Below, piece by piece: positions 5,687 through 64,000 of a DNA stretch of 64,000 nucleotides. The stretch is from a virus. Position 1 is the stretch's first letter; the number at the start of each line of letters is the position of its first letter. The translations under genes and the position numbers were made by a program. The DNA is taken from the IMG/VR virus record IMGVR_UViG_3300046694_000291, positions 1 to 64,000 of that record. One strand, given 5' to 3'. The notes beneath the pieces are model-generated. The model did no database searches and had not been told where the DNA came from. It worked only from the letters and a program-made list of their open reading frames with translations.

Positions 5687-5870
5687 GTATACCTACTCGG
5701 TTACTCTTCGTACGAATTGACCGAACCTACCGGTCCGTAGAGCTACGGATTGGCGAGGTTCCCTTCTGAGGAGCGAACCCGACCGGTCCCTCACACTCCC
5801 ACCACCCACTGCGAGTTCGCAGTCGCCCAGGTCAGGGGGTGGTTTTACTAAATCGGACATTGCGGGCGCC
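5687..5870. repeat. dispersed ~184-bp fixed-spacing element, copy 1
   Basis: Blocks CTACCGGTCCGTAG, GTTCCCTTCTGAGGAGCGAAC, GAGTTCGCAGT, CCCAGGTCAGG, GGTTTTACTAAATC shared with other copies. Confidence 0.9.
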
Positions 5871-5903
5871 GGGGCGGGCCGTATAAAGACCCGCCCCGAA
5901 CGC

Positions 5904-6242
5904 TCAGGCGGACTTGCCGGTCTTGCGCAGAGTGGTGACCTTGCGGCCCGAGCGGACCGCGTCGTGCAGCTTCCCGTTGAGGTGGAACCTGACGGTCTTG
6001 ACGGTCATGGCGCGCTCGACCCGGCCCCCGAGGGCGCCCTTGGCGACCCGGCGGCGGGACGGTTCCAGGGTGAAGGCGTTCGGCAGCTTGACCTTGAACC
6101 CGGCGGCCAGCGCCCGGCCCATGACGTCGATCACTGCCTGGACGGCCTCCCGGGCCGACTCGTCGGTCTGGCCGGTCTCGGCCGCGACCGCCCGGGACAG
6201 GGCGATGAAGTTGAGGTCGTTCTCGATCTTCGCTCGAACCAT
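5904..6242 (-). CDS. HU/IHF-family histone-like DNA-binding protein
   Basis: LSRAVAAETG...AREAVQAVIDVMGRALAAGFKVKLPNAFTL...VRF...KLHDAV matches the HU fold pattern. Confidence 0.8.
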   Translation of the reverse strand: MVRAKIENDLNFIALSRAVAAETGQTDESAREAVQAVIDVMGRALAAGFKVKLPNAFTLEPSRRRVAKGALGGRVERAMTVKTVRFHLNGKLHDAVRSGRKVTTLRKTGKSA

Positions 6243-6244
6243 GA

Positions 6245-6442
6245 TCAGTTCTCCTTGGTCTTCCTGGTCCGGGTCTTGCGGAACCCGAGCGGCCCCGGCA
6301 GATCGACCGAGGTGGTGCTCCGGCGGCGGCCGGTCGTGTGACTGACCGGTCCGACCTTGGTCGTGATGGAGACGCCGGTCTTGCCGAGGTTGAGGTACAG
6401 CCCCGGCATGACCTTGATGCGCTTCCGGAAGGTGAGCGGCAT
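6245..6442 (-). CDS. DUF4236-like small basic protein
   Basis: FRKRIKVMPGLYLNLGKTGVS signature. Confidence 0.75.
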   Translation of the reverse strand: MPLTFRKRIKVMPGLYLNLGKTGVSITTKVGPVSHTTGRRRSTTSVDLPGPLGFRKTRTRKTKEN

Positions 6443-6527
6443 GGCCGTCTCCCTTGATCGGTGAGGCCCAGTTGCCCCGTGGAACGCTCGGACGGACCGG
6501 AACCCGAGCGCTCACCGCGAACTGGAT

Positions 6528-6677
6528 CTACTTCTTGTCCTCGGGCTTCTCGTACGCCGTGCCGCCGTAGAGCTTGCGCTCCGTCTGGCGGCGCTTGCCC
6601 GCGCTCGACCGGCGCTGGTTGCCGGTGGGGCTCTGGCTGGCCGGGTCGTCGTCCGGCCGGGGCTTCTTCCGCGCCAT
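6528..6677 (-). CDS. small basic protein (49 aa, not in ORF track)
   Basis: MARKKPRPDDD...EKPEDKK*, start overlaps upstream stop. Confidence 0.5.
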   Translation of the reverse strand: MARKKPRPDDDPASQSPTGNQRRSSAGKRRQTERKLYGGTAYEKPEDKK

Positions 6678-7228
6678 CAGAATCCGTACCCTTCCCGCCA
6701 GGTCATCGGGTAGCTGTTGCCGTTGTTCCCGGACTCGTCGGCGTACCGGCCGAACGGGGTGGGACGGACCGTGGCCTCCAGCACCGTGTCACCGTCGGCA
6801 ATGCCGTCCAGGATCTCGTCCCAGCCGGTGTCGGTCCGCTCGGGGCCGCTGAAGTAGAAGACGTCGTGGCCGTCGGCCGCGTAGTCGGTGCCCCGGTCGA
6901 TGACGACCTCCAGGGTCCAGTCGACCCGGGACCCGGCGCCCTTGTGCCGGGTGAACTTCTCTTCGGGGACGTCGTGCTCCTCACCCAAGCGGCCGTCCAC
7001 CTCCTCGCGGATGTGGATGCCGTGGGCAGCCGTCACCCCGCACCGGAAGTTGCCCTTGCCGATATGCAGCTCGTTGTCCGGCGCCGGGGGCGTCATGCAC
7101 GTCCAGGAGCAGTCCTCGGCCGCCTTGGCGGCCAGGGCCCGCGCCTTCTCCAGGCTGTAGAAGGGCTTCTCGCCGGGGTTCATGATGAAGCCCGAGCCCT
7201 CGTCGCTCACCCAGTAGGTGGTCCTCAT
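6677..7228 (-). CDS. hypothetical phage protein
   Basis: MRTTYWVSD start, acidic globular ORF. Confidence 0.65.
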   Translation of the reverse strand: MRTTYWVSDEGSGFIMNPGEKPFYSLEKARALAAKAAEDCSWTCMTPPAPDNELHIGKGNFRCGVTAAHGIHIREEVDGRLGEEHDVPEEKFTRHKGAGSRVDWTLEVVIDRGTDYAADGHDVFYFSGPERTDTGWDEILDGIADGDTVLEATVRPTPFGRYADESGNNGNSYPMTWREGYGF

Positions 7229-7233
7229 GCTGT

Positions 7234-7572
7234 TCAGCTCCCCTCGGGCGCCTCGGCGCCCTCCACGGTCACGCTCTCGACGGCGGTGTTGTGCGTGCTC
7301 CACCGGCCGTCGCTGTCCTCGGTCACGAGGTACAGGCCGGTCAGGCACTCCGGGTCGGACTTGACGGCCGCCGCCCACAGCAGGTCGATGGTCTGGACCG
7401 CGAGGTCACGCTGGAAGCCGATCACCCGGGCGACCGAGCCCTGCCAGAAGTCCTGGCGCTGGACCGAGCCGTCCTCCTCGACGAAGTACGGGTACGGCTG
7501 CTTGGTGAACTCCTGGCCGTCGATGATCTGGTCGACGTAGGACGCGGGCTGCACCCGCAGGACCCTGCTCAT
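7234..7572 (-). CDS. hypothetical phage protein
   Basis: 112 aa, AGGAGG RBS. Confidence 0.7.
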   Translation of the reverse strand: MSRVLRVQPASYVDQIIDGQEFTKQPYPYFVEEDGSVQRQDFWQGSVARVIGFQRDLAVQTIDLLWAAAVKSDPECLTGLYLVTEDSDGRWSTHNTAVESVTVEGAEAPEGS

Positions 7573-7627
7573 GTGTCCTCCTGGACATCGGGGACGGGCC
7601 CGGCCGACCGGCCGGGCCCGAAGCGGA

Positions 7628-8509
7628 TCAGGCGTAGATCTTGACGTACCTGTGGCCCGAGGCGAACGCCTCAGCCAGCGTGTCCTGGACGCTCTCCGGG
7701 GCCTCCAGGGCCGCCGGGGTGTCCGGGTGGGTGTCGTAGAGGTGCCAGGACGCCGACTCCTCCACGGCCCGGCGAGGGGCCGGGAGCGCCACGACCCGGA
7801 GCAGCTCGCACTCCGCGTCCCGGACCGACCCGCTCGGGGTCAGGTGGGCGAACTCCGCGTCCAGCTCGATCACGACGCTCCAGCCCGAGGCGCTGAAGGC
7901 CCGGCTGCCCGGGACGACCGTGCCGCTGTAGGCCTTGCAGACGTTGTGGACGCGGCCGGTCATGCCCTCCTCGGCCTGGAACGCGGCGGCGAGCGCGGCC
8001 TTGGTCGGCCGGACGGGGGCGGTCGCGCGGTGCAGGGTCGCGTGGGAGATCCGGTCGGCCCGGAAGCTGCGGGTGTCGTCGGCCTTGCGGTCGAACGCCC
8101 GGACCACGACCTTCCCGGCCTTGGTCAGGCGGACCGAGGTGACCTCTACCTCGCGGAGGCTCACGTCACCCTCGGGCTTCACGTACCGGAGCTTCATGGT
8201 CCGGCCGGTGCGGGCGGCGGTGTGGTAGCGGGCGATGTCCGCCTCCTCGATCACGAACACCGAGGCGAGCTGGCCGTCGTTCAGCAGCGCGACCACGTAC
8301 AGTCCGGCCTCGCGGTACTCGAACACCTGCGGGTAGCCGAACTCCAGGACGTACTCGGTGCGGCGGGCGGCGGCCTCGTGCTGGTCGGCGTAGGCGTCGA
8401 TGACCCAGATGCTCTCCCGGACCTCGTCCTGCGTCCACTCGTGGGACGCGGCCTGGTCGTTCGCGAAGTTCACGGTGGTGATGATCTGGCGTCCGGTGTT
8501 CTCTCGCAT
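7628..8509 (-). CDS. WYL-domain protein
   Basis: MKLRYVKPEGDVSLREVE...RAFDRKADDTRSFRADRI WYL signature. Confidence 0.8.
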   Translation of the reverse strand: MRENTGRQIITTVNFANDQAASHEWTQDEVRESIWVIDAYADQHEAAARRTEYVLEFGYPQVFEYREAGLYVVALLNDGQLASVFVIEEADIARYHTAARTGRTMKLRYVKPEGDVSLREVEVTSVRLTKAGKVVVRAFDRKADDTRSFRADRISHATLHRATAPVRPTKAALAAAFQAEEGMTGRVHNVCKAYSGTVVPGSRAFSASGWSVVIELDAEFAHLTPSGSVRDAECELLRVVALPAPRRAVEESASWHLYDTHPDTPAALEAPESVQDTLAEAFASGHRYVKIYA

Positions 8510-8623
8510 GATCGGCTCCTGCTGGTCTGGTGGTCTGTGTTCGCCTTACGAGGTACAACCTACGCTGAGCAGGGCCGATCTAAACACCCCTTGGACAAGG
8601 GAGTTGAGACCGGCCCCTAATTG

Positions 8624-9553
8624 TTACAATTCCAGCGCCCGCCGGATCCCCTCCTCCAGGGTCACGGTCGGTGCGTAGATCGTCAGCATCCGGTCCGGGT
8701 CACCGACCCGGTACGCCACACCCTGCGGCATCTCTGGCATGAAGAGGACGCCCGGCAGGCCCCCGAGGTAGGTCCGGGGACGGAGCAGGACGGTCTCCCG
8801 GATCATCATCCGGACCAGGGTGCTGAACGGGGTCGGCTCACCGGTGCAGAGGTTCACCGGCGCCGCCGTCCCGTCCTCCGCGACCGCGAGCGTCCCGGCG
8901 ACGATGTCGTCCACGTGGATCCAGTCCCGGACACAGTCCCCGCACCAGACCGTGACCGGGTCCTCCCCGGCCTTGACCCGGTCGAGGATGGCCCGGAAGG
9001 GGTAGCTGGAGTCCTGGTCCTCGCCGTATCCGGAGAACGGCCGGACCACAGTGACCGGCACACCGGTCTTCCGCAGCCGGTCGGCCAGCAGCTCGCCGGT
9101 GACCTTGCTCCAGCCGTAGACCTCGTCCGGCTGACGGATCACATGGGGCAGGTCGATGTGATCTTCCATCAGACCTGTCGGTAGCCACCCGGGCCCCTGC
9201 TGAAGGTTGACCGGGTACGCGGCCGAGCTGCTGAAGTAGATCACCCGGCCCGGCCGCGCGACCGCCGCCCAGCGGAACATCTCCGCGTCGATGGACAGCG
9301 ACTCGGCCGTGGCCAGGGGGTCGTTCTCGATCGTCTCCCGGCCGCCGACCACGGCCGCGCAGTGGACCACGAGGTCGAAGTGCGGCCGGTAGGGGTTGCC
9401 GAGGTTGCGGATCTGGTGCCGGAAGTAGTCCCGGCAGTCCTGGGCGCTGGTCGCCTTGACGTCCAGGCCGAGGACGTCGTACCCCCGGCGCTTCAGCTCC
9501 GCCGAGAAGTGACGGCCGAGGAACCCCCGGTCGCCGGTGACGAGCGCCCTCAT
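8624..9553 (-). CDS. NAD-dependent nucleotide-sugar epimerase/dehydratase
   Basis: TGDRGFLG, HCAA, SSSAAY, YGWSK (YxxxK), VRPFSGYG, VRDWIHVDD. Confidence 0.92.
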   Translation of the reverse strand: MRALVTGDRGFLGRHFSAELKRRGYDVLGLDVKATSAQDCRDYFRHQIRNLGNPYRPHFDLVVHCAAVVGGRETIENDPLATAESLSIDAEMFRWAAVARPGRVIYFSSSAAYPVNLQQGPGWLPTGLMEDHIDLPHVIRQPDEVYGWSKVTGELLADRLRKTGVPVTVVRPFSGYGEDQDSSYPFRAILDRVKAGEDPVTVWCGDCVRDWIHVDDIVAGTLAVAEDGTAAPVNLCTGEPTPFSTLVRMMIRETVLLRPRTYLGGLPGVLFMPEMPQGVAYRVGDPDRMLTIYAPTVTLEEGIRRALEL

Positions 9554-9711
9554 CCCCGGACTCCCCGGAACTTGGGCTTCAGACCCTGGAGCACGCGTGC
9601 TGCGTCCTCCAGGCCCTGCCGGTAGCCCTGCTCCTCGTCGTCGGACCCGTCGGACTCGCCCAGCCGGGCCTTCAGCTTCTCGATCGTCTCCAGGTCCTCG
9701 TCGCTCACCAT
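9550..9711 (-). CDS. small hypothetical protein
   Basis: MVSDEDLE..., overlaps both neighbours. Confidence 0.5.
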   Translation of the reverse strand: MVSDEDLETIEKLKARLGESDGSDDEEQGYRQGLEDAARVLQGLKPKFRGVRG

Positions 9712-10301
9712 CGGTCGGTCCTCCCGCTCGTGTTGCCACCGTGCCAGTTCCAGACCCAGGTCCGGCGGTTCAGGTGCTCGATCTTCGCACCCTCCCCGAC
9801 CATGCGCTCCCAGGTCCCCCAGTCGTCGCAGGGGTTGTCCGGAGGTCCCTTCGGGGTGAAGCCGCCGACGTCCCACACCAGCTCGCTCCGCACCAGGACC
9901 GTGATCGGGATGTAGTTCTGGTACCGCAACGCCTCCTCGTTGAAGGGCTGGCCCTCGAACTGCGGGAACGGGTCCCAGCCCTGTGGGACGGTGAACCACG
10001 GGTACACCATGTCGGCCCCGGTCGCCTCCGCGTGCTCCATCAGCAGCCGGACGTGGTCGGTGTTCCACTGGTCGTCATCGTCGAGGAAGGCCATCCACTC
10101 CGTGTTGACGGCCGAGGCGGCGTGGGTGCGGTTGCGGGCCGACCCGGCGCGCTCGTGGTCGATGCGGATGCTGATCGCCTCGACCGGCCGCTCCTGCTGG
10201 AGGACCGAGTCGACGGCCCGGTGCAGGTGGGTCTGGACCCGGGGCGGGATGGCCGGGATGACCGCCGTGACCCCGGGCCGCAGGTGCCGCATACGGTTCA
10301 T
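9705..10301 (-). CDS. glycosyltransferase family 2
   Basis: AVDSVLQQ, ARNR, WMAFLDDDD, DDW motifs. Confidence 0.88.
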   Translation of the reverse strand: MNRMRHLRPGVTAVIPAIPPRVQTHLHRAVDSVLQQERPVEAISIRIDHERAGSARNRTHAASAVNTEWMAFLDDDDQWNTDHVRLLMEHAEATGADMVYPWFTVPQGWDPFPQFEGQPFNEEALRYQNYIPITVLVRSELVWDVGGFTPKGPPDNPCDDWGTWERMVGEGAKIEHLNRRTWVWNWHGGNTSGRTDRW

Positions 10302-10942
10302 CGATGGACCGCCATCCAGAGCTGGTAGGTGTACGGGTTGTGCATGTGCCGTGTCGACTCCGGCACCAGCAGGTGGACCTCCAGCGGGGACCAGCCGTTC
10401 AGCCAGAGCATCTCGTGGATGTCCACCTGCCCCCAGCCCCAGTAGTGCTCCTCGTTGCCGACCGAGGCGGGCTCGTCCAGCGGGGTGGACAGGAACAGGT
10501 ACCGGCTGATCCCGGCGAGCCTCCGCAGCAGGCCGTCCGGGTCGGTCACGTGCTCCAGGGTCTCGCTCAGCACGAACAGGTCGACCGGCAGCACCTCGGC
10601 CGGGAAGGACCCGAAGTCGTCCAGGCTCTCCGGCAGCGGGCCTGCCTTCATGACCCGGACGTGCTTCCGGAGGGGGTACTCTCCCCGGGCCCCGATCAGG
10701 TCGCCGACGTAGGCCTGCTCCAGAAGGTCGTCCAGGCCCTTGAGGATGGCCGCGTCTCCGCAGGACAGGTCGGCCGCCGTCTTGATGTTGTTGCCGTACC
10801 GGCGAATCAGCTCCACCGAGGCGGCCACACGCTCCACGTGGTCCGGCCAGACCTCGTGCCGGTACCCCCTCGGGTACCTGCGCTCGTAGAACGCGATCTC
10901 CTCGGCCTCGGTCCGGAACGGCCGGAGCTGGTTACGCGCCAT
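10298..10942 (-). CDS. class I SAM-dependent methyltransferase
   Basis: DLSCGDA motif I; SETLEHVTDP. Confidence 0.8.
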   Translation of the reverse strand: MARNQLRPFRTEAEEIAFYERRYPRGYRHEVWPDHVERVAASVELIRRYGNNIKTAADLSCGDAAILKGLDDLLEQAYVGDLIGARGEYPLRKHVRVMKAGPLPESLDDFGSFPAEVLPVDLFVLSETLEHVTDPDGLLRRLAGISRYLFLSTPLDEPASVGNEEHYWGWGQVDIHEMLWLNGWSPLEVHLLVPESTRHMHNPYTYQLWMAVHR

Positions 10943-11642
10943 CGCCGTACTCCTCCCGCACCAGCCGGAGGGCGGACTCGAAGCCGGTCCCGTCCCGGTA
11001 GGCGGTCCAGGCGTCCCGGTCGTGCCGGTCGGCCTCGGAGTCGTTGACCACCCGGTACCGCTCGTCCCACTCGGCCTTCCCGGCCACGGGGTGCAGATGC
11101 TCGATGATCACGTCGTCCCGGTAGACCAGGCCGCCGGTCCGCTCCCCCAGCTCCTTCCAGAAGTTGTCCAGGTAGAGGTGACGCATGACCTGCGGCGCCA
11201 TGCACCCGAGCGTCCGGATCATCCGGCTCTGCATGAAGACCGCCGTCGGCAGGTTGGCGCCCTGGAGCAGGTCGTTCCCGTAGACGATGCGGGGGCTGAG
11301 ACTGTCCAGCTCCCGGATCATCTCCGTGTCCCAGCCGTGCGTCCGGGGCAGGTGGTCGTCCCCCATGAAGCCCACATACTCGTACACCGAGGCACACCGG
11401 CGCGCAGCGAAGTTCAGCGGGTAGTTGAGCCCCCGGCCACCCCCCATGTCGGCGTAGACCAGCAGCCGGGGAATCAGGCCCGCACCCAACAGGCCCCGGT
11501 ACTCCGGCAGCTCGGGGTCATCCTGGTCGGCCACGAACAGCAGCGTGGTTCGCCCCAGGACGGTCTCTTCGAACGCCTCGGCCAGCCGGGCCGCGTTCTG
11601 CGGCCGTCCCCGGGTGGGGACGACCACGACAAGTTCGCTCAC
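10932..11642 (-). CDS. glycosyltransferase family 2
   Basis: VVVPTRGR, GFMGDDH, EHLHP. Confidence 0.82.
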   Translation of the reverse strand: MSELVVVVPTRGRPQNAARLAEAFEETVLGRTTLLFVADQDDPELPEYRGLLGAGLIPRLLVYADMGGGRGLNYPLNFAARRCASVYEYVGFMGDDHLPRTHGWDTEMIRELDSLSPRIVYGNDLLQGANLPTAVFMQSRMIRTLGCMAPQVMRHLYLDNFWKELGERTGGLVYRDDVIIEHLHPVAGKAEWDERYRVVNDSEADRHDRDAWTAYRDGTGFESALRLVREEYGDGA

Positions 11643-12046
11643 CGCTTCCTCCTCGGAGCAGCCCGCTCACGGGTCAGCTCCATGTTGATCTGGGATTCCC
11701 TGGTCGTCCTGATCAGGTGCGCGATCGCCGTCGCCGCGATGGCGATGCCGATCAGCCCGATCAGGAGTGCCGTCATCACGACGGCGAGGATCATGGCACA
11801 GATCGTGCCGATGATCAGAGCCCCGAGCGCCAGCCACATGTACGGCAGCGCCTGCTGCGCGAGCGTCGGCTTGGGCGGCGGAAGCGGCGGGGGCGGCGGC
11901 GCGTAGTGGTGGTGCTCGTGGAATTGGATCACCTGCGGTGCCCCCGGGCCTGACTCGGCTCCGGGGAGCGAGCTGGTCGGGTTCATCCGCAGGTACTCCA
12001 CGATGGCCGAGAGCCGGTCCGTGCTGTTCGTGTCTTCCGTGGTCAT
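11639..12046 (-). CDS. SpdD-like plasmid spread membrane protein
   Basis: His/Pro-rich linker then two TM helices, downstream of traB as in Streptomyces plasmids. Confidence 0.55.
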   Translation of the reverse strand: MTTEDTNSTDRLSAIVEYLRMNPTSSLPGAESGPGAPQVIQFHEHHHYAPPPPPLPPPKPTLAQQALPYMWLALGALIIGTICAMILAVVMTALLIGLIGIAIAATAIAHLIRTTRESQINMELTRERAAPRRKR

Positions 12047-12055
12047 GATCTCTCC

Positions 12056-12250
12056 TTACTTGATGCGGCGCCCGACCAGCAGCAGTGCTCCGCCGAGGAC
12101 TCCTCCGCACACGATGACGAACAGGGCCGCTCCGAGCGTCTGTGCGACGGTGAGCTTGCTGTCCGAGTCGGGGCCGACACCCGAGGCCACCATGAAGCCC
12201 GCGAGCAACAGCGCCGTCCACAGGACAGCCCTTCCGATCTTGCTGATCAT
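12056..12250 (-). CDS. small two-TM membrane protein (Spd-like)
   Basis: Two hydrophobic helices; AAGGAG RBS. Confidence 0.6.
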   Translation of the reverse strand: MISKIGRAVLWTALLLAGFMVASGVGPDSDSKLTVAQTLGAALFVIVCGGVLGGALLLVGRRIK

Positions 12251-12272
12251 CTCCTTCTCGCTTCCGTGAGGG

Positions 12273-12389
12273 GCCCTGACGCGTCAGGGCTGCGTGGCCA
12301 GAGAATGTCCCCAGGCCGGGACGGTCGTCAGGACCTTGATCAGACGTCTGATCAGCTCCTGACGGCCATCCTGATCAGGGGCTGATCAG
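12273..12389. repeat. candidate clt (cis-acting locus of transfer)
   Basis: Four TGATCA(G) copies at 12337-12389 plus palindrome GCCCTGACGCGTCAGGGC, immediately 3' of traB. Confidence 0.5.
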
Positions 12390-14377
12390 TCGCCTGACAC
12401 CTGCTGGGCGTCCGGGTACTGCCGGAGGATGGTGAAGATCTTTTTGCCCTTCGGGGGCCGGTACGCCCGCAGGACACCGGCCTCCACCAGCAGGTTGAGG
12501 TTGTTGTAGACCCAGCCGGGGGTCTTGCCGATCTCGGCCGGGAGGTCGGCCAGATCGTCGATCGTGATGTCCAGGTGGCCTCCCCTGGCCAGCACGTCCA
12601 GCCGGTTCATCAACCGGCGCCGGGCCTCCGCCACGTCCAGGCTGTTCTTGCTGGTGGGGGCTCCGAAATCGAAGCCGAGGCCCGGCGGGGGCGGTGTCAG
12701 GGGCTGTCCCGGGTCCGCTCCCGAGACCCCGGCGAACGGGTTCATCTCCTCTCCCTCCTCGTCGAACTCGTCTTCTTCCAGGTCAGCGTTCTCGTCCACC
12801 GGCATGAACCGGGGGTCGATGCCGTACGCCAGGCGCTCGTACGTGCCCGGGTCGATCTCGGCCCAGAACTGCCGGGAGCCCTCGATGCTGAACTGCTTCT
12901 CGGCCGGGGTCATGTAGATGGCCCGGCCGTCGACCGGCCAGTGGGTCTTGTCGGTGCCGACCACCTCGGCGTACAGGCTGCCCGGCGCGTCGCTCTTCCA
13001 CTTGGTCGGGTCGGCCCCGGCCTCCAGGCTCTCCCCCGAGAGGGCGTACTTGGCGTCCTGGTACTCGTTCTGGCCGTGCGCCAGGGACTCCACGAACTGC
13101 CCCCGGACCTTCCGGGGGATGTCGTCGTGCGGCATGGTCTGCATGCTGATGTTGAGCTTGACCCCGAGGCTGCGGAGCTTGCGGACCGCCTCGTAGACCT
13201 CCTCGTCCATCTCCATCAGCACGTCGGCCGCCTCCTCCACGTTCGCGAAGATGAACGGCACGCCGTGCAGCGTGTAGCACTCCGGTTCCCACTGCTTGTA
13301 ACCGGTGCCGCCGTCGGCCCTGACGAGAGAACCCAGCAGCTCGGAGCGGTACTGGACCACCGGCCCGGCCAGGTTCGTCAGGAGCTGACGGACCTGCTCA
13401 GCGTTCTGAGCCGTCAGCCCGAGCACCTCTTCGATGTCCCCGAAGGACTGCCGGAACTTGGCCGGGTCGCCGACCACCGGCACGATGTCCGTCCTCCAGC
13501 GCATGTCGAGGATCGCGGTGCAGATCGTCTCCGTCTTGCCCGAGCCGGTGACGCCGGTCGTCTTGCTGTGACCGACCGGCCGGGGGTTGTTGGGGTCGCT
13601 CGACCCGGGCATCCACCAGTTGATGTCCGAGCCGTCGGTCCGGCGGCCGAGGTACAGCGGAGCCGCCGCGCAGGACTGTCCCGGAGCCGAGGGGCCCCGG
13701 TACTTGACCGGCTTGGACGTGTCCGCCCGGCGGTTCATGACGACGTCGGCGACGCCCTCGTTCCCCGGGACACGAAGGATCTTCACCTGGTCCTTGTCCA
13801 CCCCCGCCACGGCCGCGACCTGGTCCCGTGTCCGCTGGGCGTCCCCGACCGTGTTGGGGGTGTCCAGGTGGTGACGGATGCGCAGCTCGTCCGGGGTGAC
13901 GGTGACGTCCCCCGGCGCGACCTTGGCGTTCTTGAACGCACCGATCTTGTCCCCGAGCCAGGACCCCGTGCTGTCCTTCGCCTTGTCCTTCTCGTGTCCT
14001 CCGGTGACACCGGCGTGCCGGATCATCCAGAAGCCGGACAGGGACACACCGCAGATGACATAGGCCTTGAGCATGTCCCCCGCCCACGGGACACCTGTCC
14101 CCGCGAACGCGATCCAGCTCAGGCCGAGGCCCACGGACAGCGTCGCGGTGACCCTCGTCTCGTGCTTCCGGCCCTGCCAAGTGCGCCAGGTGCCGTAGGT
14201 CATGCAGACGAAGATCCCGCCCAGGACCGCCATCCAGCGGCCGTCCCCACCCACTGTGAAGTGGATGGCCACGGCCACCGGAAAGGCAGCGAGCGTCAGC
14301 AGCCAGGGGGCCACGTACGGGGCTGCCTTCTCTCCGATGCGGAGCCCAAGAGAGCCCCGGCGGCCGTGACCAGCCAT
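12386..14377 (-). CDS. traB: TraB-type FtsK/SpoIIIE-like conjugative DNA translocase
   Basis: N-terminal TM helices, Walker A GVTGSGKT, Walker B-like NVEEAA, RSLG..L.ISMQ, C-terminal winged helix. Confidence 0.8.
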   Translation of the reverse strand: MAGHGRRGSLGLRIGEKAAPYVAPWLLTLAAFPVAVAIHFTVGGDGRWMAVLGGIFVCMTYGTWRTWQGRKHETRVTATLSVGLGLSWIAFAGTGVPWAGDMLKAYVICGVSLSGFWMIRHAGVTGGHEKDKAKDSTGSWLGDKIGAFKNAKVAPGDVTVTPDELRIRHHLDTPNTVGDAQRTRDQVAAVAGVDKDQVKILRVPGNEGVADVVMNRRADTSKPVKYRGPSAPGQSCAAAPLYLGRRTDGSDINWWMPGSSDPNNPRPVGHSKTTGVTGSGKTETICTAILDMRWRTDIVPVVGDPAKFRQSFGDIEEVLGLTAQNAEQVRQLLTNLAGPVVQYRSELLGSLVRADGGTGYKQWEPECYTLHGVPFIFANVEEAADVLMEMDEEVYEAVRKLRSLGVKLNISMQTMPHDDIPRKVRGQFVESLAHGQNEYQDAKYALSGESLEAGADPTKWKSDAPGSLYAEVVGTDKTHWPVDGRAIYMTPAEKQFSIEGSRQFWAEIDPGTYERLAYGIDPRFMPVDENADLEEDEFDEEGEEMNPFAGVSGADPGQPLTPPPPGLGFDFGAPTSKNSLDVAEARRRLMNRLDVLARGGHLDITIDDLADLPAEIGKTPGWVYNNLNLLVEAGVLRAYRPPKGKKIFTILRQYPDAQQVSGD

Positions 14378-14378
14378 C

Positions 14379-14888
14379 TCAGTGACCTCCGAAGGCGTCG
14401 AAACCGCCCTTACCGGACCGGTGCGGGCGCTTGACCTGCGAGGACTCCAGGCTGTCCAGGAAGTCCTCCATGATCGCCCACGTCTTGACGGCGCCGGTGG
14501 CGGAGCTGAGCAGGGCCTCGGCCGAGGCCGAGTTGAGCTGACGGCCCATCCGGCGCAGGACCAGCTTGAGCTGACCCTTCTGGACCAGCGTCAGCCGTCC
14601 GTCGTCGCTCCGGTCACGGGCCGCCTGACGGGCAGCGGCGTCGAGCTGGGAGGCCGCCGCGTGGCTGAAGAAGGCCAGGCCCTGGGACAGGGCGCGCAGG
14701 CTCTCCAGGAAGTCGTACAGCTCGGTGGGGTCCATCACCTCACCTGCGGCGATGGTCTCCAGGTGCTGCTCCATGGTCTTCCGGGTCGGCTGGGGTGCCC
14801 CGGTCGTCCGGGAGCCCGTGGCCGAAGTACCGGCGGGCCTGCGGGGGGACGCCTTAGCGCCGGTCCCCGTACTGGGTGCTGTGGTCAT
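14379..14888 (-). CDS. TraA-like accessory transfer protein
   Basis: Helical protein directly upstream of traB; assignment is positional. Confidence 0.45.
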   Translation of the reverse strand: MTTAPSTGTGAKASPRRPAGTSATGSRTTGAPQPTRKTMEQHLETIAAGEVMDPTELYDFLESLRALSQGLAFFSHAAASQLDAAARQAARDRSDDGRLTLVQKGQLKLVLRRMGRQLNSASAEALLSSATGAVKTWAIMEDFLDSLESSQVKRPHRSGKGGFDAFGGH

Positions 14889-14907
14889 CGTTCCTGGTTC
14901 CTCTCGA

Positions 14908-15762
14908 TCAGGGCCGAGGGTGCTTGCCCTCGGCCCGGCGGATTGCAACGGACAGGCTGTTCGCCTTGGGCGGTGTCCCGTCCGGGGACACGAACTCCGC
15001 CTTCAGCGTGTCCTTGATCTTGTCCTTGTCCCACCCGGACAGCCACAGTTCGACCGCCCGGGAGGACAGGGACACGGGGTTCTGTCCCGCCGGTTGTCCC
15101 GGGGACGCCGCTGTCTTCTGTCCCTTGGTGAGGGACAGGACATTGGACGCTGCCGGGACAACCGGACGGGACACCGGCGGGACACTCGCCGGTACCGGTG
15201 ACGGGACGGGACGGGGACGTATCCGTGTCACCGTCGCCACCGGAGTCTGGATGTCCTGTCCCGTGTCCCGCAGGACACGGACAGGACGGGTGCGCTCGGC
15301 CGCCCCGAGAGCGGCGAAGTGCAGGAGGTGTCCGAGGATCAGCGGGGGGACCGAGGACACCGACACGACCAGCCAGAGCGGCGGCCGGGGCTCGGCCGAG
15401 ATGTACCCGGTCACGAACAGGTGACTGACCGGCTGCGCGGCCATGGCCAGCAGCAGGCTCAGGAAGGCCCCCCAGACGGACGAGGTCTTGCCCCGGGCGC
15501 CCTTGGGGAGCTGGGTGCTGATGACGGCCGCCAGGCCCGCGTAGAGGGTGAAGAGGCCGCTCAGGCCCCAGCTCATGCGGTAGCCCCAGCCGCTCAGGTC
15601 ACCGAGGTGCTGCTCACCCGGGGCGCACAGCACCAGAACCAGGATCGCGGCCACCGGGACACCCCACTGGCGGAAGGCGGACACCCAGCCGGGGACGTCC
15701 TGCGGCTCGGGGGTGACGCTGTCCTCGCCGGACACCCGGCGGGACACGAACGGGATGTACAT
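14908..15762 (-). CDS. SpdB-like four-TM protein with C-terminal HTH-like domain
   Basis: Four TM segments, Pro-rich linker, C-terminal RAVELW...SLSVAIRR. Confidence 0.6.
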   Translation of the reverse strand: MYIPFVSRRVSGEDSVTPEPQDVPGWVSAFRQWGVPVAAILVLVLCAPGEQHLGDLSGWGYRMSWGLSGLFTLYAGLAAVISTQLPKGARGKTSSVWGAFLSLLLAMAAQPVSHLFVTGYISAEPRPPLWLVVSVSSVPPLILGHLLHFAALGAAERTRPVRVLRDTGQDIQTPVATVTRIRPRPVPSPVPASVPPVSRPVVPAASNVLSLTKGQKTAASPGQPAGQNPVSLSSRAVELWLSGWDKDKIKDTLKAEFVSPDGTPPKANSLSVAIRRAEGKHPRP

Positions 15763-15901
15763 GGTCCTGTCCTTCCGTGGTCCGATATTCCTAAATCGTG
15801 TAGGGAGGGTATGTCCCCGGGCCTGTCCCGTCAAACCCCCAGGACATGACGAAGGACCGGGGACATGTCCCCGGTCCTGTCACCTGCGGTGTCCTCGTCG
15901 G

Positions 15902-16219
15902 TCAGATGTCCCCGAGGACAGCGGCCCGAGCCGCTCGCCTGTCCTCCGTCACCCGGAACTGCTCCTCCTCGGACACGACCCGGGACATCTCCCCCAGGAT
16001 GAAGGACAGCAGCGCCCTGTCCTTCGGGGACATGTCCTGGATGATCTCCCGGGTCGCCTCGGTCTCGTCCCGCAGGAGCGCGACGAACGCGAGCACCATG
16101 TCCAGGTCCTCGGTCCGCTCCAGCCGGATGTTCTGTCCGCCGGTCCCGGACGCGGCCGGTGACTCGGCCGACTGGGGCTGGATCTGCCGGTTCACTTGCA
16201 GCATGCGGAAAATGCTCAT
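15902..16219 (-). CDS. hypothetical protein, first gene of the tra module
   Basis: 105 aa, upstream GACCAAGGAG. Confidence 0.6.
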   Translation of the reverse strand: MSIFRMLQVNRQIQPQSAESPAASGTGGQNIRLERTEDLDMVLAFVALLRDETEATREIIQDMSPKDRALLSFILGEMSRVVSEEEQFRVTEDRRAARAAVLGDI

Positions 16220-16249
16220 GATCAGTGCTCCTTGGTCGTGTGCTCGGGT

Positions 16250-16433
16250 GTATACCTACCCGGTTACCGTCCGTGTCATTTAGCTAAACCTACCTGTCCG
16301 TAGAGCTACGGATTGGCGAGGTTCCCTTCTGAGGAGCGAACCCGACCGGCCCCTCACACTCCCAGGGCCCAGGTTCCGTTCGCAGTCGCCCAGGTCAGGA
16401 AGTGGTTTTACTAAATCAGACATTGCGGGCGCC
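16250..16433. repeat. dispersed element, copy 2
   Basis: Near-identical to 5687-5870, same length and orientation. Confidence 0.9.
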
Positions 16434-16460
16434 GTATGCCTATACGGCGATCACGTATAT

Positions 16461-17108
16461 CTACACACCCCGACCGGCGGTCGCGTGCCGGTTCGGGCTC
16501 GCGTTCCAGTTCCAGGTCACCGCGTCCAGGTGCTCGAAGATGGCCTTGGCGTCGTCCATGAGACGGATCAGGTAGTCCTCGTCCTCGCCCCGGTAGCGCG
16601 GACGGCCGTCCGTGTCGACGTCGTACCCGGGGCGGAAGCCGCCGATCTGCCGCACCAGCTCGGTCCGCACCAGGTGCGTCATCGGGATGAACGACCCGTG
16701 CAGGCGCAGGTGCGCCGCGTGGTCGGACGACCAGCGCAGGCCCCACGGCGAGACCGGGAAGCGGCCCTGGTGGGTGAGCGCGGTCGGGTCGGCTCCGCCG
16801 ATCATCCTCGGCCTCGGGTACACGAGGTCCGGCCGCCACGGCGACTGCTCCAGCACCCGCATGCAGGCCATCAGGTGGTTCGGCCGGAGGGTGTCGTCGT
16901 CGTCGAGCCAGGCGATCACGTCGGTCCCCACGCGCTCCAGCGCCCGGTTGCGGGCCGCGTGCGCGCCGGTGCGCTCACTGTCCCGCTCGACCACGATCTG
17001 GTCCGGCTTGCGGCGCTGGGCACGGACGGACGTCAGGGCCCGGTCCAGCAGGGCCTCCCGGCCGGGGATGGTCGGGACCACGACGGCCACGGTCAGATGC
17101 TTCTTCAC
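16461..17108 (-). CDS. glycosyltransferase family 2
   Basis: VVVPT, ALTSVRAQ, AARN, WLDDDD, GEDE. Confidence 0.88.
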   Translation of the reverse strand: MKKHLTVAVVVPTIPGREALLDRALTSVRAQRRKPDQIVVERDSERTGAHAARNRALERVGTDVIAWLDDDDTLRPNHLMACMRVLEQSPWRPDLVYPRPRMIGGADPTALTHQGRFPVSPWGLRWSSDHAAHLRLHGSFIPMTHLVRTELVRQIGGFRPGYDVDTDGRPRYRGEDEDYLIRLMDDAKAIFEHLDAVTWNWNASPNRHATAGRGV

Positions 17109-17277
17109 GACAGGTCCCTCCTGGGGTGCCTCATGACCCAGCAGCCCCGGGTCCGGCAGTCCGTTCCGATGCAGGCACAGAGGCCGACGAAGTCCCGTAC
17201 CTCCTGGTTGAACTTCCGGGCCGTCATCCGGAGACGTCCCCGGTGCAACTGGTGCATCGCCTTGTCCCGCGTGGTCC

Positions 17278-18198
17278 TCAGGGGCATGACCTGATCTTCT
17301 CCTCGGGGTCCTCGGGCGGGGTCCAGCGGGACGTGCCCTCGGGTCCGGGCCAGATCCGGCCGTACTGGTACGGGTCGTGGGGGAACTCGGACAGGGTCGA
17401 CTCGATCAGCTCGTCATGAGCCGGGTCCGGGCCGATCAGCCCGGCCGGGATGCCGTACGCCTCCCGGACATACGCCCTGAAGTCCTCCGGGGCACATGAC
17501 TGCAAGGCCCGGTGGTTTTCCCGTACCTGGTCCATGGCCGCCCGTGCGTTGGCTGCGGTGAAGGATGCCTCTTCGGCCTCGGCCTCGATGGCCTGCTGCA
17601 TGGCCTGCCCGAGGAACCCGCAGCCCCGGGCTGCACGGTCGAGACCGCTCAGGGCCTCCCCAGCCTCCCGTATGCGCTCCCGGAGAGCGGCCCAGTCGAT
17701 CCGGTTCTGCTCGGCCCGGTTCATCCCAGGGAGAATCCCAAGGTCTGCCCGTACCTCCGGCCCGGACAGGACCCCGAAACCGAAGGACTGGCGGTACTGC
17801 TCCCGCCGGGCCTCGGCCGCCGCGCGCCTCTCCTCCGACGTCTCGAAGGACTGGTTCAGGATGTCGGCCAGCCAGCTCAGCTCGTCGGCCGGACGCTGGA
17901 TCACCAGTTCCGCGACCAGGTGAGGTTCCGGCACGGCCCAGGGCGGGACCACCGGCTCGTCCATCCACGCGGCTCTCATGTCCAGGGACCGTGGGCTGAA
18001 CCGGTACTCGGCCTGCACCTCGCGCAGGAACCCGGTCAGATCCAGCTCCCGGCCCCGGCTCTCAGTCGGCCGGGTCTCCATCTGCCGCAGCGCTATCCGG
18101 CGGGGATGGCGGTCGAGCTGATTGTCACTCTGCTCGATAATCAGCTCGCCCTCCCCCTCGTAGACCGTCTGGCCGTCCTGGCCGAGGATGCGGATCAC
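17278..18198 (-). CDS. hypothetical phage protein
   Basis: Long helical ORF; start uncertain. Confidence 0.55.
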   Translation of the reverse strand: MIRILGQDGQTVYEGEGELIIEQSDNQLDRHPRRIALRQMETRPTESRGRELDLTGFLREVQAEYRFSPRSLDMRAAWMDEPVVPPWAVPEPHLVAELVIQRPADELSWLADILNQSFETSEERRAAAEARREQYRQSFGFGVLSGPEVRADLGILPGMNRAEQNRIDWAALRERIREAGEALSGLDRAARGCGFLGQAMQQAIEAEAEEASFTAANARAAMDQVRENHRALQSCAPEDFRAYVREAYGIPAGLIGPDPAHDELIESTLSEFPHDPYQYGRIWPGPEGTSRWTPPEDPEEKIRSCP

Positions 18199-22547: not shown

Positions 22548-22662
22548 GGTCTGTGATCCTTTGGTCTGTGGTCCCCGTCGGCCGGGGCCGTGGGTAGTAC
22601 GTCACAGAGGAGGGTACCTACCTTTAAGTAAATCGAAACATCCCGAGCGAGAGGACCACGGA

Positions 22663-40735: not shown

Positions 40736-40817
40736 TCGAGTGCCGTTGCCCCCGCTGGCCGACCCCGGCCGAGGGCCACCGCCATAACTGCCCGATGAAG
40801 ATCCTGGAGAGTCAGTG

Positions 40818-41658: not shown

Positions 41659-41912
41659 CTGAGGATTGGAAGCGCTACGTCGTCACGGCAGGGGATCTGC
41701 GTGCGCAACTCTCCGCTGTACCCGATGACACCCCCGTCATCCTGAGCAAGGACGCGGAGGGCAACAGCTACTCGCCGCTCAGCTCGGTGGACGCGATCCA
41801 TGTCTACGAGCCTGAGAGCACCTGGTCCGGTGAAGTGCGCGACACCACGGACCCGGACTATGAGGCGGACCCCGGGGACACCCGGGTCGTACTGCTGGGA
41901 CCGGTGAACTGA
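41655..41912 (+). CDS. hypothetical phage protein
   Basis: VILSKDAEGNSYSPL. Confidence 0.6.
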   Translation: MTEDWKRYVVTAGDLRAQLSAVPDDTPVILSKDAEGNSYSPLSSVDAIHVYEPESTWSGEVRDTTDPDYEADPGDTRVVLLGPVN

Positions 41913-61415: not shown

Positions 61416-61416
61416 G

Positions 61417-61923
61417 ATGGCCTTCACCAGCAGCAGCATGTTCCGGGCCTGGACGGCCGCTGTCCTGGGCCAGGGGCAGACCGCCGCCGTGCTCCCGGCC
61501 GCGTACGCGGGCCTCGGGGCCGACACGGTCAACGTGGCGCTCTTCAACAACACGGGCACGCCGGACAAGGACGCCGCCCTCACCAGCACCGGCTACAACA
61601 CCGGTCAGTGGGTCACGGCGAACGAGGTCACCGGCTCGGGTATCTGGGCTGCGGCCGGTCGGCCCCTGGCAGGCAAGACCATCACCAACCCGGCCACCGG
61701 CGTCACCATGTTCGACGCCACGGACCTGGCCGGTGCGGGCACCGGCACCCTGGCCAACGTCTACGGCTGCCTGGTGTACGACGACACGATCACCGCCGGG
61801 ACCGGCGGCGTAGCCGACGAGGGGATCTGCTTCAACTACTTCGGCGGTGCGCAGTCGGTGACCTCCGGCACTTTCACGATCGTCTGGAACGCCAACGGCA
61901 TCGCCCGGATTACCTCGTCCTGA
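61417..61923 (+). CDS. putative virion/tail protein
   Basis: NVALF...NEVTG...FDATD...FGG...GTFTIVWNANGI. Confidence 0.65.
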   Translation: MAFTSSSMFRAWTAAVLGQGQTAAVLPAAYAGLGADTVNVALFNNTGTPDKDAALTSTGYNTGQWVTANEVTGSGIWAAAGRPLAGKTITNPATGVTMFDATDLAGAGTGTLANVYGCLVYDDTITAGTGGVADEGICFNYFGGAQSVTSGTFTIVWNANGIARITSS

Positions 61924-61941
61924 TCGGTCGGGGGTGATGTC

Positions 61942-63516
61942 GTGACGAGCTTCAGCGACGACTTCAACCGAGCCAACGGAGCCCCCGGAGCAAACTGGGT
62001 CGACGGAACCGGCCTGTGGACCATCGTCTCCAACCAGCTCAGCTCTGGATCAGCAGGCGGCACAATCGTCATCCGTGCCGCTACTGCGATGGCCACCAAC
62101 GACAACAGCGCCCAGATCACGATCCCTGCTACTGCGGCCCTCAGCCACGGCGTCTGGTGCCGGGGCAACACCGGTTTCACCCAGGGCTACCTGTGGCGCA
62201 ACGACGGCACCTCATGGAACCTCTTCAGCAACGTCGGCGGCTCGTTCACATCGATCGGGTCCTTTGCCGGAGCGGCCGTTGCAGGCGACATCGCCAAGGT
62301 GCAGGCCGTCGGCTCCACCATTAAAGGCTTCGTCAACGGTGTCGAGCGGGTCAGCGTTACGAATACTGCTGTCACGACCGGAACATCCGTTGGTCTCCGG
62401 GCAGAGTCGTCCAACTCTCTCCGGTTCGATGACTTCAGCGCGGCGGATGTCTCCAGCGGGACCACAGCCAACGCGGACGTGGCCGCTGCGACCGTCACCG
62501 GGTACGACGCCACGGGGGCGGTCTCCGGTCTGCCCGGACAGGCAGCGACGGCAGCGGACGCGGGTGCGGCCCCAGCCTCCATCGGAGCATTGGCCGGGCA
62601 AGCCGCTGGAGCCGCTGACGCCAGTGTCTCAGGAGCCTCCTCGGGAGCCCAGGCCGGGATCTCCGGGGCTGCGGCGGACGCCCTGGCCCCGTCGGCCGCC
62701 CTGACCGTCCTGCCTCCGGAGACGGCCGCTCAGGCCGTTTCTCCCGGAATCGGGAACACGGACGCTACGGTGCAGGGGACCGAGGTTGCCGTGGTCGGCT
62801 CCTCCGCCCTGGATTCCTCGGTCGCGCTCGGGGTGTCGGCCGGTGCTGTGACCGTGTCGGCCGACGCCTACGACGCCACCACGACCTCCGCCCCGATCGT
62901 CAATGCCAGCGCGGAGGCCGCAACAGCCGGAGCCGCCGCTCTCGACGCCTCGGCCGCCGTGTCCGCCTCGGCAGGGACGGCCGCCGGGACAGCGGACGGA
63001 CAGGACGCCGGAACGTCCGTCACGGTCCAGGGCACCGGGACAACGGCCGGGACAGCCGACGCCGGGCAGGGGACACCCCTGGTGGGGGCGGTTCCTCCGG
63101 CCGGGAGTGCCACTGCCGCCGTGGACAACGCACTCGCGGCCGTTACCGTCCTCGCCGAAGCAGCTCAGGTGGTCGCCTCGGCCTGGGACGTGTCCTTTTC
63201 CACGCACCTGGACGTGTCCGCCGGAGTGTCCCTGGTGTCCGCGTCCGCGTCCCCGGCACTGTCCGCCCACGGAGCTGTCCCCGGGACAGCAGGCGCGGTC
63301 GTCTCGGCCGGGGACATCAGTCTTCTGGAGCACGGCACGGACAGCCGGGAGCGTGTGTCCGGCACAGAGCCGGGTCCGGCGCGCGGCAGGGAGCCCGCCG
63401 CCTCGGCCGCCGGAACGGAACCGGGCGGGAGCAGGGGGCGGGCGCCGGTATCTTCGGTGCAGGGCGTCCGGCCGGTCGGCCGGGTCAGCGGAAGGGAACC
63501 GGGCAGTGGCCAGTGA
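61942..63516 (+). CDS. putative minor tail protein (lectin-like head, Ala/Ser/Thr-rich repeats)
   Basis: FSDDFNRA...FDDF domain followed by low-complexity repeats. Confidence 0.6.
   Translation: MTSFSDDFNRANGAPGANWVDGTGLWTIVSNQLSSGSAGGTIVIRAATAMATNDNSAQITIPATAALSHGVWCRGNTGFTQGYLWRNDGTSWNLFSNVGGSFTSIGSFAGAAVAGDIAKVQAVGSTIKGFVNGVERVSVTNTAVTTGTSVGLRAESSNSLRFDDFSAADVSSGTTANADVAAATVTGYDATGAVSGLPGQAATAADAGAAPASIGALAGQAAGAADASVSGASSGAQAGISGAAADALAPSAALTVLPPETAAQAVSPGIGNTDATVQGTEVAVVGSSALDSSVALGVSAGAVTVSADAYDATTTSAPIVNASAEAATAGAAALDASAAVSASAGTAAGTADGQDAGTSVTVQGTGTTAGTADAGQGTPLVGAVPPAGSATAAVDNALAAVTVLAEAAQVVASAWDVSFSTHLDVSAGVSLVSASASPALSAHGAVPGTAGAVVSAGDISLLEHGTDSRERVSGTEPGPARGREPAASAAGTEPGGSRGRAPVSSVQGVRPVGRVSGREPGSGQ
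62960..63370. repeat. second GGACA/TGTCC cloud
   Basis: More than a dozen copies inside the tail-gene 3' half. Confidence 0.6.
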
Positions 63517-63847
63517 CCGCATCACCATCGGGCCGTACGTCGTCGGGGAGAAACCGGCTCCGCTGGAGTACACCTTCCTGGACTCGGACGGCGTGCCGAT
63601 AGACCTCTCCGGTTACACAGCGAAGTTCATCGTGCGGCCGGTCGACAGCGACATCTCCGTCACCTACAACGCGACCGTCACGACCCCGGCCGCCGGGGAG
63701 GTGACCTACACCTGGGACGGAACGGAGTTCGCGGAGCAGGGCCCGCACTGGTCCGAGTTCTGGGTCGGCAACAGCACGAACCGCTTCGCGAGCCTGCGCC
63801 TGGAGTACTCGGTCAGGGCCTCGGTCGGCCCGGTTCCTGCTGTTTAA
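63506..63847 (+). CDS. BppU-like baseplate/tail domain protein
   Basis: LDSDGVPIDLSGYTAKF...GEVTYTW. Confidence 0.6.
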   Translation: MASDRITIGPYVVGEKPAPLEYTFLDSDGVPIDLSGYTAKFIVRPVDSDISVTYNATVTTPAAGEVTYTWDGTEFAEQGPHWSEFWVGNSTNRFASLRLEYSVRASVGPVPAV

Positions 63848-63874
63848 CTTATTCGGTCCGACGAATACACATAC

Positions 63875-64000
63875 GGTTCCGGAGAGCTACATTCCTTGAA
63901 ACTACCGGTCCGTAGCGTAACAACTTCCTCAGATTCCCTTCTGAGGAGCGAACTTCGAGGAGTGGCCCACTCGTACCACCCACTCCGAGTTCGCAGTCAC
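63875..64000. repeat. dispersed element, copy 5 (truncated by window end)
   Basis: CTACCGGTCCGTAG, TTCCCTTCTGAGGAGCGAAC, GAGTTCGCAGTC. Confidence 0.88.

Follow-up and report, generated by a model that had tools for sequence, protein, structure and literature searches.

In Streptomyces phage phiC31 a conserved inverted-repeat operator occupies many intergenic regions, near early promoters that are non-canonical and highly conserved. The gal repressosome, which includes HU, depends on a looping repressor with operators 100-200 bp apart, at a distance that must keep helical phase. T4-type phages contain promoter-early stem-loops (PeSLs), regulatory cassettes that are mobile (Arbiol et al. 2010, PMC2839356; Comeau et al. 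2014, PMC4122927) and possess an E. coli sigma-70 consensus promoter and a proven terminator (PMC2839356). In plasmid RK2 the KorA operator core TTTAGCTAAA overlaps a -10 region (PMC2680271). The DNA described here is an 84,106-bp IMG/VR virus record (IMGVR_UViG_3300046694_000291) with direct terminal repeats, rated complete, of which bases 1-64,000 (69% G+C) form the window, i.e. the whole stretch analysed. Its intergenic regions contain five copies of a non-coding cassette of ~200-290 bp, and such cassettes are a real, undescribed family of mosaic intergenic elements. From their anatomy and from comparison among relatives we suggest, with a probability of about 0.45, that each is a protein-bound terminator, operator and promoter unit at a border of transcription units; this value stays below one half because of inverted copies and the missing canonical promoter.

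All five dispersed copies reported in the initial annotation exist at the places given, four of them wholly inside the window. According to a repeat finder, 5687-5871 and 16250-16434 are 86% identical over 185 nt, and inverted matches link these two copies with 37199-37304 (82-84%) and 44338-44410 (90-94%); 63892-63953 matches at 79-81%. BLAST of copy 1 against the whole record recovers the five places and none elsewhere. A covariance model built from 10 copies has exactly five full-length matches in the record and none in bases 64,028-84,106, and the two-box pattern AGAAGGGAAYCT-N15-CTACGGACNGGTA occurs five times with 0 mismatches (expected 0.00 from 100 shuffles). The spacing described initially is accurate, with 17 nt between the first two blocks in all five copies and a dyad GCGAAC/GTTCGC whose interior measures 36 nt (35 in copy 5); the blocks CCCAGGTCAGG and TTTTACTAAATC are indeed confined to copies 1, 2 and 4. 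Other parts of that description need revision. The unit exceeds the ~184 bp assigned to it and carries a 16-bp palindrome at each end; copy 5 continues beyond the end of the window, as far as ~64,068 of the record; and the dyad, reported as extensively self-complementary in copies 3-5, is so in copies 3 and 5 (fold z -6.3 and -4.5) and not in copy 4 (z 0.0).

Cassettes are read here towards the following gene, which for copies 1, 2 and 5 is the reverse complement of the initial orientation. Each begins just past the upstream stop codon and ends 20-45 nt before the next start codon. The first part is a 16-bp palindrome, CCGTAT-N4-ATACGG (O1), followed by a left module of several types, of which type A carries the AT-rich box GATTTAGTAAAAC. 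CCCTGACCTGGGnGACTGCGAAC, a variable stretch of 36 nt and GTTCGCTCCTCAGAAGGG then make up a predicted ~78-nt imperfect hairpin with a variable top. The fourth part is the invariant pair AGAAGGGAAC-CT and CTACGGACCGGTA, separated by 15 nt and with AACCT preceding this gap; the distance (AGAAGGGAAYCT to CTACGGAC) is fixed in every copy, including those found by protein or model and not by pattern. In the right module, type R1 consists of TAGGTT overlapping an AT-rich palindromic box (consensus GTTTAGCTAAAT), followed by GGTAACC. A second palindrome (O2) ends the cassette 20-30 nt before the ribosome-binding site. All copies are intergenic, and the five of the record (Table 1) mark the borders between blocks of different function (replication, TraB-like, small genes, DNA modification, packaging/head and tail). 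Copy 4 resembles copies 1 and 2 in its left half and has another module in its right half; immediately upstream of it, at ~44257-44291, is a separate terminator-like hairpin.

Table 1. Positions of the cassettes, their parts and associated features in the window
Feature	Coordinates	Strand	Context or content
Copy 1	5680-5897	-	between HU-like gene (5904-6242) and 72-aa gene starting at 5645
Copy 1, end palindrome	5685-5700		
Copy 1, two-box motif	5728-5767		
Copy 1, 48-nt dyad	5773-5820		
Copy 1, AT-rich box	5842-5854		
Copy 1, G+C hairpin	5871-5897		contains ATACGG half-site
Copy 2	16245-16450	-	between glycosyltransferase gene (16461-17108) and 105-aa gene starting at 16219
Copy 2, AT-rich palindromic box	16278-16289		reads ATTTAGCTAAAC
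Copy 2, two-box motif	16291-16330		
Copy 2, perfect palindrome	16432-16447		
Copy 3	37097-37295	+	upstream of 85-aa gene starting at 37325, head of DNA-modification block
Copy 3, perfect palindrome	37097-37112		
Copy 3, two-box motif	37213-37252		
Copy 3, AT-rich box	37254-37265		
Copy 3, second palindrome	37280-37295		
Copy 4	44318-44535	+	upstream of 102-aa gene starting at 44556, head of packaging/head block
Copy 4, two-box motif	44445-44484		
Copy 5	63858-64000 (window end)	-	inverted relative to flanking plus-strand genes, 63506-63847 and head-tail adaptor gene starting at 64080
Copy 5, end palindrome	63861-63876		
Copy 5, two-box motif	63903-63942		
Stand-alone AT-rich box	44888-44899	+	GTTTAGGTAAAT, preceded by CGGACACCGG; ~30 nt before ribosome-binding site of next gene
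AT-rich box outside cassettes	5330-5341		
AT-rich box outside cassettes, weaker	near 22620-22632		
Candidate binder	21699-22529	-	276-aa DUF6551 protein with ParB/Noc/KorB-like fold; putative partner

The word CCGTATA occurs six times in the record, each time within one of the five cassette gaps. Half-sites of the palindromes are conserved and their 4-nt centres vary freely. Positions were measured from the second box in 33 copies, with O1 accepted at up to 2 mismatches. O2 starts at +39/+40 in 21 of these and at +60 in one. O1 is recognised in 22 of the 33, at -143/-144 (three copies), -153 to -155 (16) or -163/-164 (three), and nowhere else. The left modules of the three O1 classes differ in sequence; it is therefore their lengths that differ by multiples of ~10 bp. 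Where both palindromes are present (13 copies) the O1-O2 distances are 183, 183, 192-194 (nine copies), 202 and 202 bp, i.e. they change by whole helical turns only, as for a looping pair; copy 3, with 183 bp from start to start, is an example. Conserved half-sites with a free centre are the signature of a dimeric DNA-binding protein and a face-of-helix constraint, not of an RNA stem. These regularities are clear evidence for helically phased end sites to which, we infer, a protein binds, and they support the multi-site nucleoprotein platform proposed initially.

Pairing in the predicted central hairpin was counted on an alignment that follows the structure of the model itself and is thus biased towards it: 83.9% of the cells are paired compared to 78.3 +/- 0.7 after shuffling (0 of 500 shuffles reach this value), double changes affect 50 cells (20.5 +/- 3.7 shuffled), and Watson-Crick pairs number 474 (428 +/- 6). 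Controls with partners slid by 1-3 columns yield 35-51% paired cells. A-C mismatches are depleted (11 vs 19.3 +/- 2.8) and G-U pairs are not (60 vs 63.4 +/- 3.1), which fits pairing in RNA of the gene-facing strand. The closing stem is replaced lineage by lineage with different complementary words, CAACGAAC/GTTCGTTG in the relative G011 and TTCCTAGAA/TTCTGGAA in the relative G005. Covariation of this kind is reasonable evidence that the cassette contains an RNA hairpin; a U-tract is absent. Long-range pairing of left and right AT-rich boxes was also considered and rejected, since copy 3 has no left box and copy 4 no right box.

The hexamer after the second box keeps T, A and the final T with a variable middle (TAGGTT, TAAGTT, TAGATT, TAGTTT, TAATTT, TAACTT). 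This TANNNT type is kept in R1 copies, copy-5-type copies and those of the relative G022, and it usually overlaps the AT-rich palindromic box. The box consensus contains a 10-bp core identical to the RK2 KorA operator core, which occurs exactly in 13 of 31 listed sequences and in three of four G011 copies. This identity may be coincidence; the KorA family (PF16509) has no match at E <= 10 in the record. The stand-alone box at 44888-44899 shows that the AT-rich box also occurs outside cassettes. In the relative G010, which has no cassette at the copy-2 junction, such a box lies just downstream of a TTGACG-N17-TACCTT promoter, which fits an operator near a transcription start. The full set of signals at this junction (L124, G010:31700-32600, ~bases 460-580) comprises an end-type palindrome, a terminator-like hairpin, five tandem 24-nt repeats (GAGACGCTGCAACGCAACGGCCCC), the TTGACG-N17-TACCTT promoter and the AT-rich box in the leader. 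Within the cassettes, GGGAAC-N17-CTACGG could be taken for a site of the extracytoplasmic function (ECF) or another sigma factor type, a doubtful assignment, as no sigma domain was found in the record and the second box is unlike a -10 element. A leftward mirror promoter in the left half was discarded, the mirrored hexamer being GTGGTT and not TANNNT (by eye). Between 22,000 and 41,900 there is a single sigma-70-type site, near 30,700 in the divergent early region. A search of the record for single-subunit RNA polymerase domains gave no match, and its control was blank everywhere, which makes this result uninformative.

In 18 of the 29 copies surveyed the core is followed at 55-72 nt by a start codon in the same orientation, and in three more at 164-169 nt, behind a tiny open reading frame (ORF). 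Four were left unresolved by the start-codon filter, though a start codon is visible by eye. The remaining four are of the copy-5 type, inverted, with the start of the head-tail adaptor gene 52-66 nt from the other end.

Pattern and protein searches recovered further cassettes from IMG/VR and from contigs of soil or rhizosphere metagenomes. Among GenBank phages, neither blastn of copy 1 nor tblastn of the downstream 85-aa protein gave a match, and the two-box pattern is absent from 185,579 species genomes, so that no prophage copies were found. The covariance model has 45 matches over 40 loci (34 distinct rows); more diverged copies were obtained via capsid-protein contigs, hence independently of the two-box pattern. 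Several phages are occupied at the same junctions, e.g. before homologues of the 85-aa gene (37325) and the 72-aa gene (5645). G011 (76 kb) possesses four copies, G005 (82 kb) two, and G004 (79 kb, syntenic, ~66-80% DNA identity in aligned segments), G010 (96% complete) and G012-G015 (at least 90% complete) none. G005 has a cassette before its homologue of 65815-66288, where the record has a 31-nt gap, and lacks one at the copy-5 junction; filled and empty sites are clean at the junctions 65783/65815 and 63847/64080. No target-site duplication could be defined at three such filled/empty comparisons. Extra operator half-sites account for direct repeats such as GTAG(A/G)TATAC at both ends of copy 2, which had been considered as such duplications.

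Left, central, spacer and right module types assort independently. Paralogues of G011 are 85-94% identical, compared to only 49-53% between the same junctions of the record (G000) and G011, and the two G005 copies have 66 identical bases in common. The sequences of the two boxes do not differ even among phages with only 52-68% identity in their major capsid proteins. Gene order between cassettes is equal in the record, G004 and G005. By comparison, with physical recombinants not seen, the cassettes appear to spread, to be lost, to exchange modules and to homogenise through recombination between copies. Filled and empty sites, mosaic modules and homogenised paralogues support the initial analogy with PeSL-type shuffling, and indels and chimeric cassettes of the PeSL kind are likewise suggested by comparison. 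Logan contigs of four DNA runs, searched over 4500-17500, break at the repeats (ends 5762, 5757-16325 and 16320); no deletion or circle junctions were seen in them, and contigs cannot reveal rare forms. One apparent joint, 5874/5682, results from paralogous copies 3/4 of another contig aligned to copy 1. In the metagenome contig L031/L053 the left half of the L042 cassette is followed by the right half of the L050 cassette and the gene downstream of it, and the changeover falls within the core common to both. Natural recombination or chimeric short-read assembly would explain this contig, which was not counted as recombination because it may be an artefact. The literature covered (subscription journals and supplementary files lay outside it) contains no description of such elements in actinophages and 0 occurrences of the second-box 13-mer or the left AT-rich box.

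Ten genes of the record have a homologue in G005 and none in G004, among them 21699-22529. Its product is a member of DUF6551 with a weak ParB-like PHROG match, an invariant VLDGQTRL motif and sub-threshold DGQHR matches. The structure model (predicted local distance difference test, pLDDT, 85) has its best fold matches in Noc, ParB and KorB (Foldseek E 1e-3 to 6e-2, template-modelling (TM) scores 0.3-0.4). Nine genomes are at least 90% complete. Three of them (G000, G005 and G011) combine cassette and ParB-fold gene, one (G010, with one palindrome retained at the copy-2 junction) has the gene without a cassette, five (G004, G012-G015) have neither, and none has the cassette without the gene, which is also present in four of five cassette-bearing fragments. 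The ParB-fold protein is accordingly named here as the best candidate for the palindrome binder, a lead and not proof. The HU-like gene (5904-6242) was dismissed as an obligatory partner, because G005 carries cassettes and lacks it. The record also contains a second gene of ParB/Noc-like type (38029-38787) and one of TraB/FtsK-like type (12386-14314).

In the preferred reading as a terminator, operator and promoter unit, a dimeric phage protein, possibly the ParB-fold protein, would bind O1 and O2, and the two complexes would contact each other over ~190 bp of looped DNA whose phase is locked. In RNA form the hairpin would lie at the end of the upstream message and there stop or trim it. The boxed region between hairpin and O2 would start or gate transcription of the next block together with a phage factor, which is invoked because this region is not a host-type promoter. 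A far more specific version is improbable in its entirety: in a lytic, DNA-hypermodifying actinophage, the ParB-superfamily DUF6551 protein (DGQTR motif) on palindrome pairs and a partner reading the KorA-like box would gate or insulate transcription units, with mobile, homogenising cassettes and co-evolution of regulator and site by lineage. It would be the first phage described to use ParB/KorB-type long-range control of transcription, with a cis-element that is portable.

A number of observations weigh against the unit as just described. About one copy in four runs against its flanking genes: counterparts of copy 5 are likewise inverted in L009, L046, L040 and G011, and at least three of four copies in the distant relatives G022 and G023 are inverted with respect to both neighbours. 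With orientation not fixed, a strictly unidirectional promoter role cannot hold for all copies, and the exceptions call for an antisense transcript, for a role as insulator or terminator, or for a protein platform that is independent of orientation. The complex promoter of the initial annotation is conceivable. Scans of 5550-6000 and 36900-37400 (copies 1 and 3) gave no sigma-70-type site, and domain searches of the record found neither region 2 nor region 4 of sigma-70. The copy-4-type right module is without the TANNNT hexamer and reads TAACCA or TAACCG. The pair counts have their inherent bias, and the hairpin top varies: of 30 copies, just 11 form a strong one (z <= -3), five an intermediate one and 14 none (z > -2), copies 1 and 4 among the last. 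Fold z values of the whole cassettes are inconsistent (-0.9, -2.5, -2.6, +1.0, -3.2), and a global RNA fold was dropped for this reason. G004 is complete and syntenic, with short junctions or abutting genes where the record has cassettes; the cassette is therefore dispensable. Co-occurrence of cassette and ParB-fold gene reaches Fisher's exact p ~0.05 in a hand calculation on nine related genomes, uncorrected for kinship and with one exception. No RNA run is listed among the 24 sequencing runs containing the stretch.

Compensatory stem changes and the depletion of A-C mismatches but not of G-U pairs would also suit a cassette acting mainly as RNA, i.e. as a processing, stabilising or termination signal in a polycistronic message, with its DNA features secondary. 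RNase III sites between genes of phage T7 offer a comparison, an inverted cassette can still form a hairpin (copy 5 dyad -27.4 kcal/mol, z -4.5; other strand -21.7, z -4.1), and the same phage uses hammerhead ribozymes in other gene gaps. Yet this explanation is unlikely given the many copies lacking a hairpin top, end palindromes and boxes that are conserved in sequence and do not covary, and length steps of ~10 bp that are meaningless for RNA; moreover, no Rfam family overlaps any cassette at gathering score, nor matches copies 1 and 3 at E <= 1. A selfish mosaic repeat, persisting through recombination copying at no benefit to the phage, is somewhat less probable still. Transposable elements of the miniature inverted-repeat type (MITEs) and the bacterial interspersed mosaic elements (BIMEs) and BOX elements are of this general kind, and palindromic ends, both orientations, mosaic modules, clean filled and empty sites, copy numbers of 0, 2, 4 or 5 in near-complete relatives and the greater likeness of G011 paralogues than of same-junction copies all speak for it. 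Boxes that stay identical across the capsid divergence, preserved helical phasing and occupation of the same junctions across lineages, including the inverted copy-5 position in five contigs, are not expected of such a repeat; nor could a target-site duplication be defined, and no recombinase was found (DDE transposase families were not queried individually).

Copies 1 and 2 point in one direction, 3 and 4 in the opposite one and 5 back again, reminiscent of polar genome-scale signals, and the palindromes might serve as loading or centromere-like sites of a ParB-family protein, or as guide sites of the TraB/FtsK-like translocase, in genome condensation, partition or transfer and not in transcription. 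PMC4447253 reports recognition of short direct repeats by Streptomyces TraB. Both kinds of gene occur in the record, the ParB-fold one together with cassettes. We consider such a role rather improbable, since G004 keeps the TraB-like (62% identity) and Noc-like (68%) genes without any cassette, which also disposes of a TraB clt reading, and since the cassette keeps a fixed distance to start codons and far exceeds a loading site in complexity; no ParA-type family stands among the 25 listed of 48 matching Pfam families. Dyad symmetry together with direct, inverted and mosaic copies would suit a site-specific recombination site, as considered in the initial annotation, for inversion, excision or as a shufflon. 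This interpretation has very little in its favour, as no tyrosine or serine recombinase domains (integrase, resolvase) were found in the record by a search including positive controls, and gene order between cassettes is unchanged in the record, G004 and G005. Equally remote is a peptide of 47-55 aa, MSDL(V/I)KPLPDLGDCE...LRREPR...LRTG, encoded by copies with left type A. A conserved ATG is found in 15 of 31 listed copies, all 15 being open for 47-91 codons through the second box, at equal ATG-to-second-box length apart from an in-frame 9-nt insertion in three. The G+C content at third codon positions (GC3) is 0.51-0.66 in these frames, below that of called genes (0.84-1.0), and substitutions fall on codon positions without bias (16/13/19 in conserved blocks, 23/21/21 in the variable part), and a coding ORF was rejected; a ribosome-binding site is missing, as is the start codon in copies 3 and 5 and in all G011, G005, G022 and G023 lineages.

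Compared to the systems named at the outset, the cassettes resemble PeSLs in combining a stem-loop (here a predicted one), a promoter-type signal and an AT-rich part in a small non-coding unit, repeated between genes, with presence or absence among close relatives and copy exchange leading to cassette-bounded indels. PeSLs, however, are shorter, occur in large numbers and gather around orphan genes in hyperplastic regions, whereas the present cassettes lack a sigma-70-type promoter, number 0-5 per genome at major module borders, can be inverted and have helically phased paired palindromes. With RK2 KorA/KorB they share two kinds of operator (putative in the phage) dispersed over the replicon at operon heads, one partner from the ParB family (in the phage a candidate), and the operator core noted above. 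The phage differs from RK2 in having no KorA-family protein, in outer palindromes unlike the KorB operator, and in a presumed high-G+C actinobacterial instead of a proteobacterial host. phiC31 is likewise an actinophage with a repeated palindromic operator beside phage promoters and terminator-like hairpins; it is temperate, though, and its operator belongs to a repressor, while the record has no evident repressor or integrase, its unit is far larger, and its operators come in phased pairs. Likeness to the gal repressosome is one of geometry only. An HU-like gene adjoins copy 1, but is absent from the cassette-bearing G005.

Transcription programmes of uncultured high-G+C soil phages are essentially unknown, and the cassette provides a concrete, testable cis-element with candidate trans-factors and with an unusually rich internal grammar, made up of operator pairs in phase, a hairpin that covaries and the invariant two boxes. 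Should it prove a regulated promoter/terminator unit, it would be a portable regulatory part for Streptomyces engineering, and mobile regulatory cassettes, so far documented for T4-type phages, would also shape actinophage genomes. With the ParB-fold protein as the binder, if it proves to be so, KorB-type control would extend from plasmids to phages.

The record is an uncultured actinophage lineage whose host is not established; the closest terminase of a named phage, that of Streptomyces phage mu1/6, is only 45% identical. Genes, called with a simple GC3-based caller, occupy the minus strand between 30,595 and 1 and the plus strand between 30,710 and 79,443. Domain matches include a primase-helicase/PolA fusion, a helicase, the large terminase, an amino-acid:DNA transferase, an HU-like protein, TET/JBP, WhiB, an FtsK/TraB-like protein and the major head protein. 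The caller left two long gaps, 45817-46713 and 61923-63506, where genes were probably missed. The gene block 38029-44261 (ParB/Noc-like, amino-acid:DNA transferase, pyridoxal-phosphate (PLP) enzyme, P-loop kinase and TET/JBP), bracketed by copies 3 and 4, points to DNA hypermodification. Two type II hammerhead ribozymes are located on the minus strand at 4593-4655 and 4985-5046, either side of a small gene, with scores of 51.2 and 43.9 bits that exceed the Rfam gathering score. An unexplained inverted repeat at 34290-34374, 84% complementary with 32-nt arms and a 21-nt centre, lies within the primase-helicase/PolA gene (32032-36399). A start-associated word (reverse complement CCGACCACGGAAGGAACC..CATG) precedes several minus-strand gene starts (1427-1451, 3177-3201 and 15760-15784), and the genes that follow copies 1 and 3 have a related word, GACCA(C/A)GGAAGGA, in front of them.

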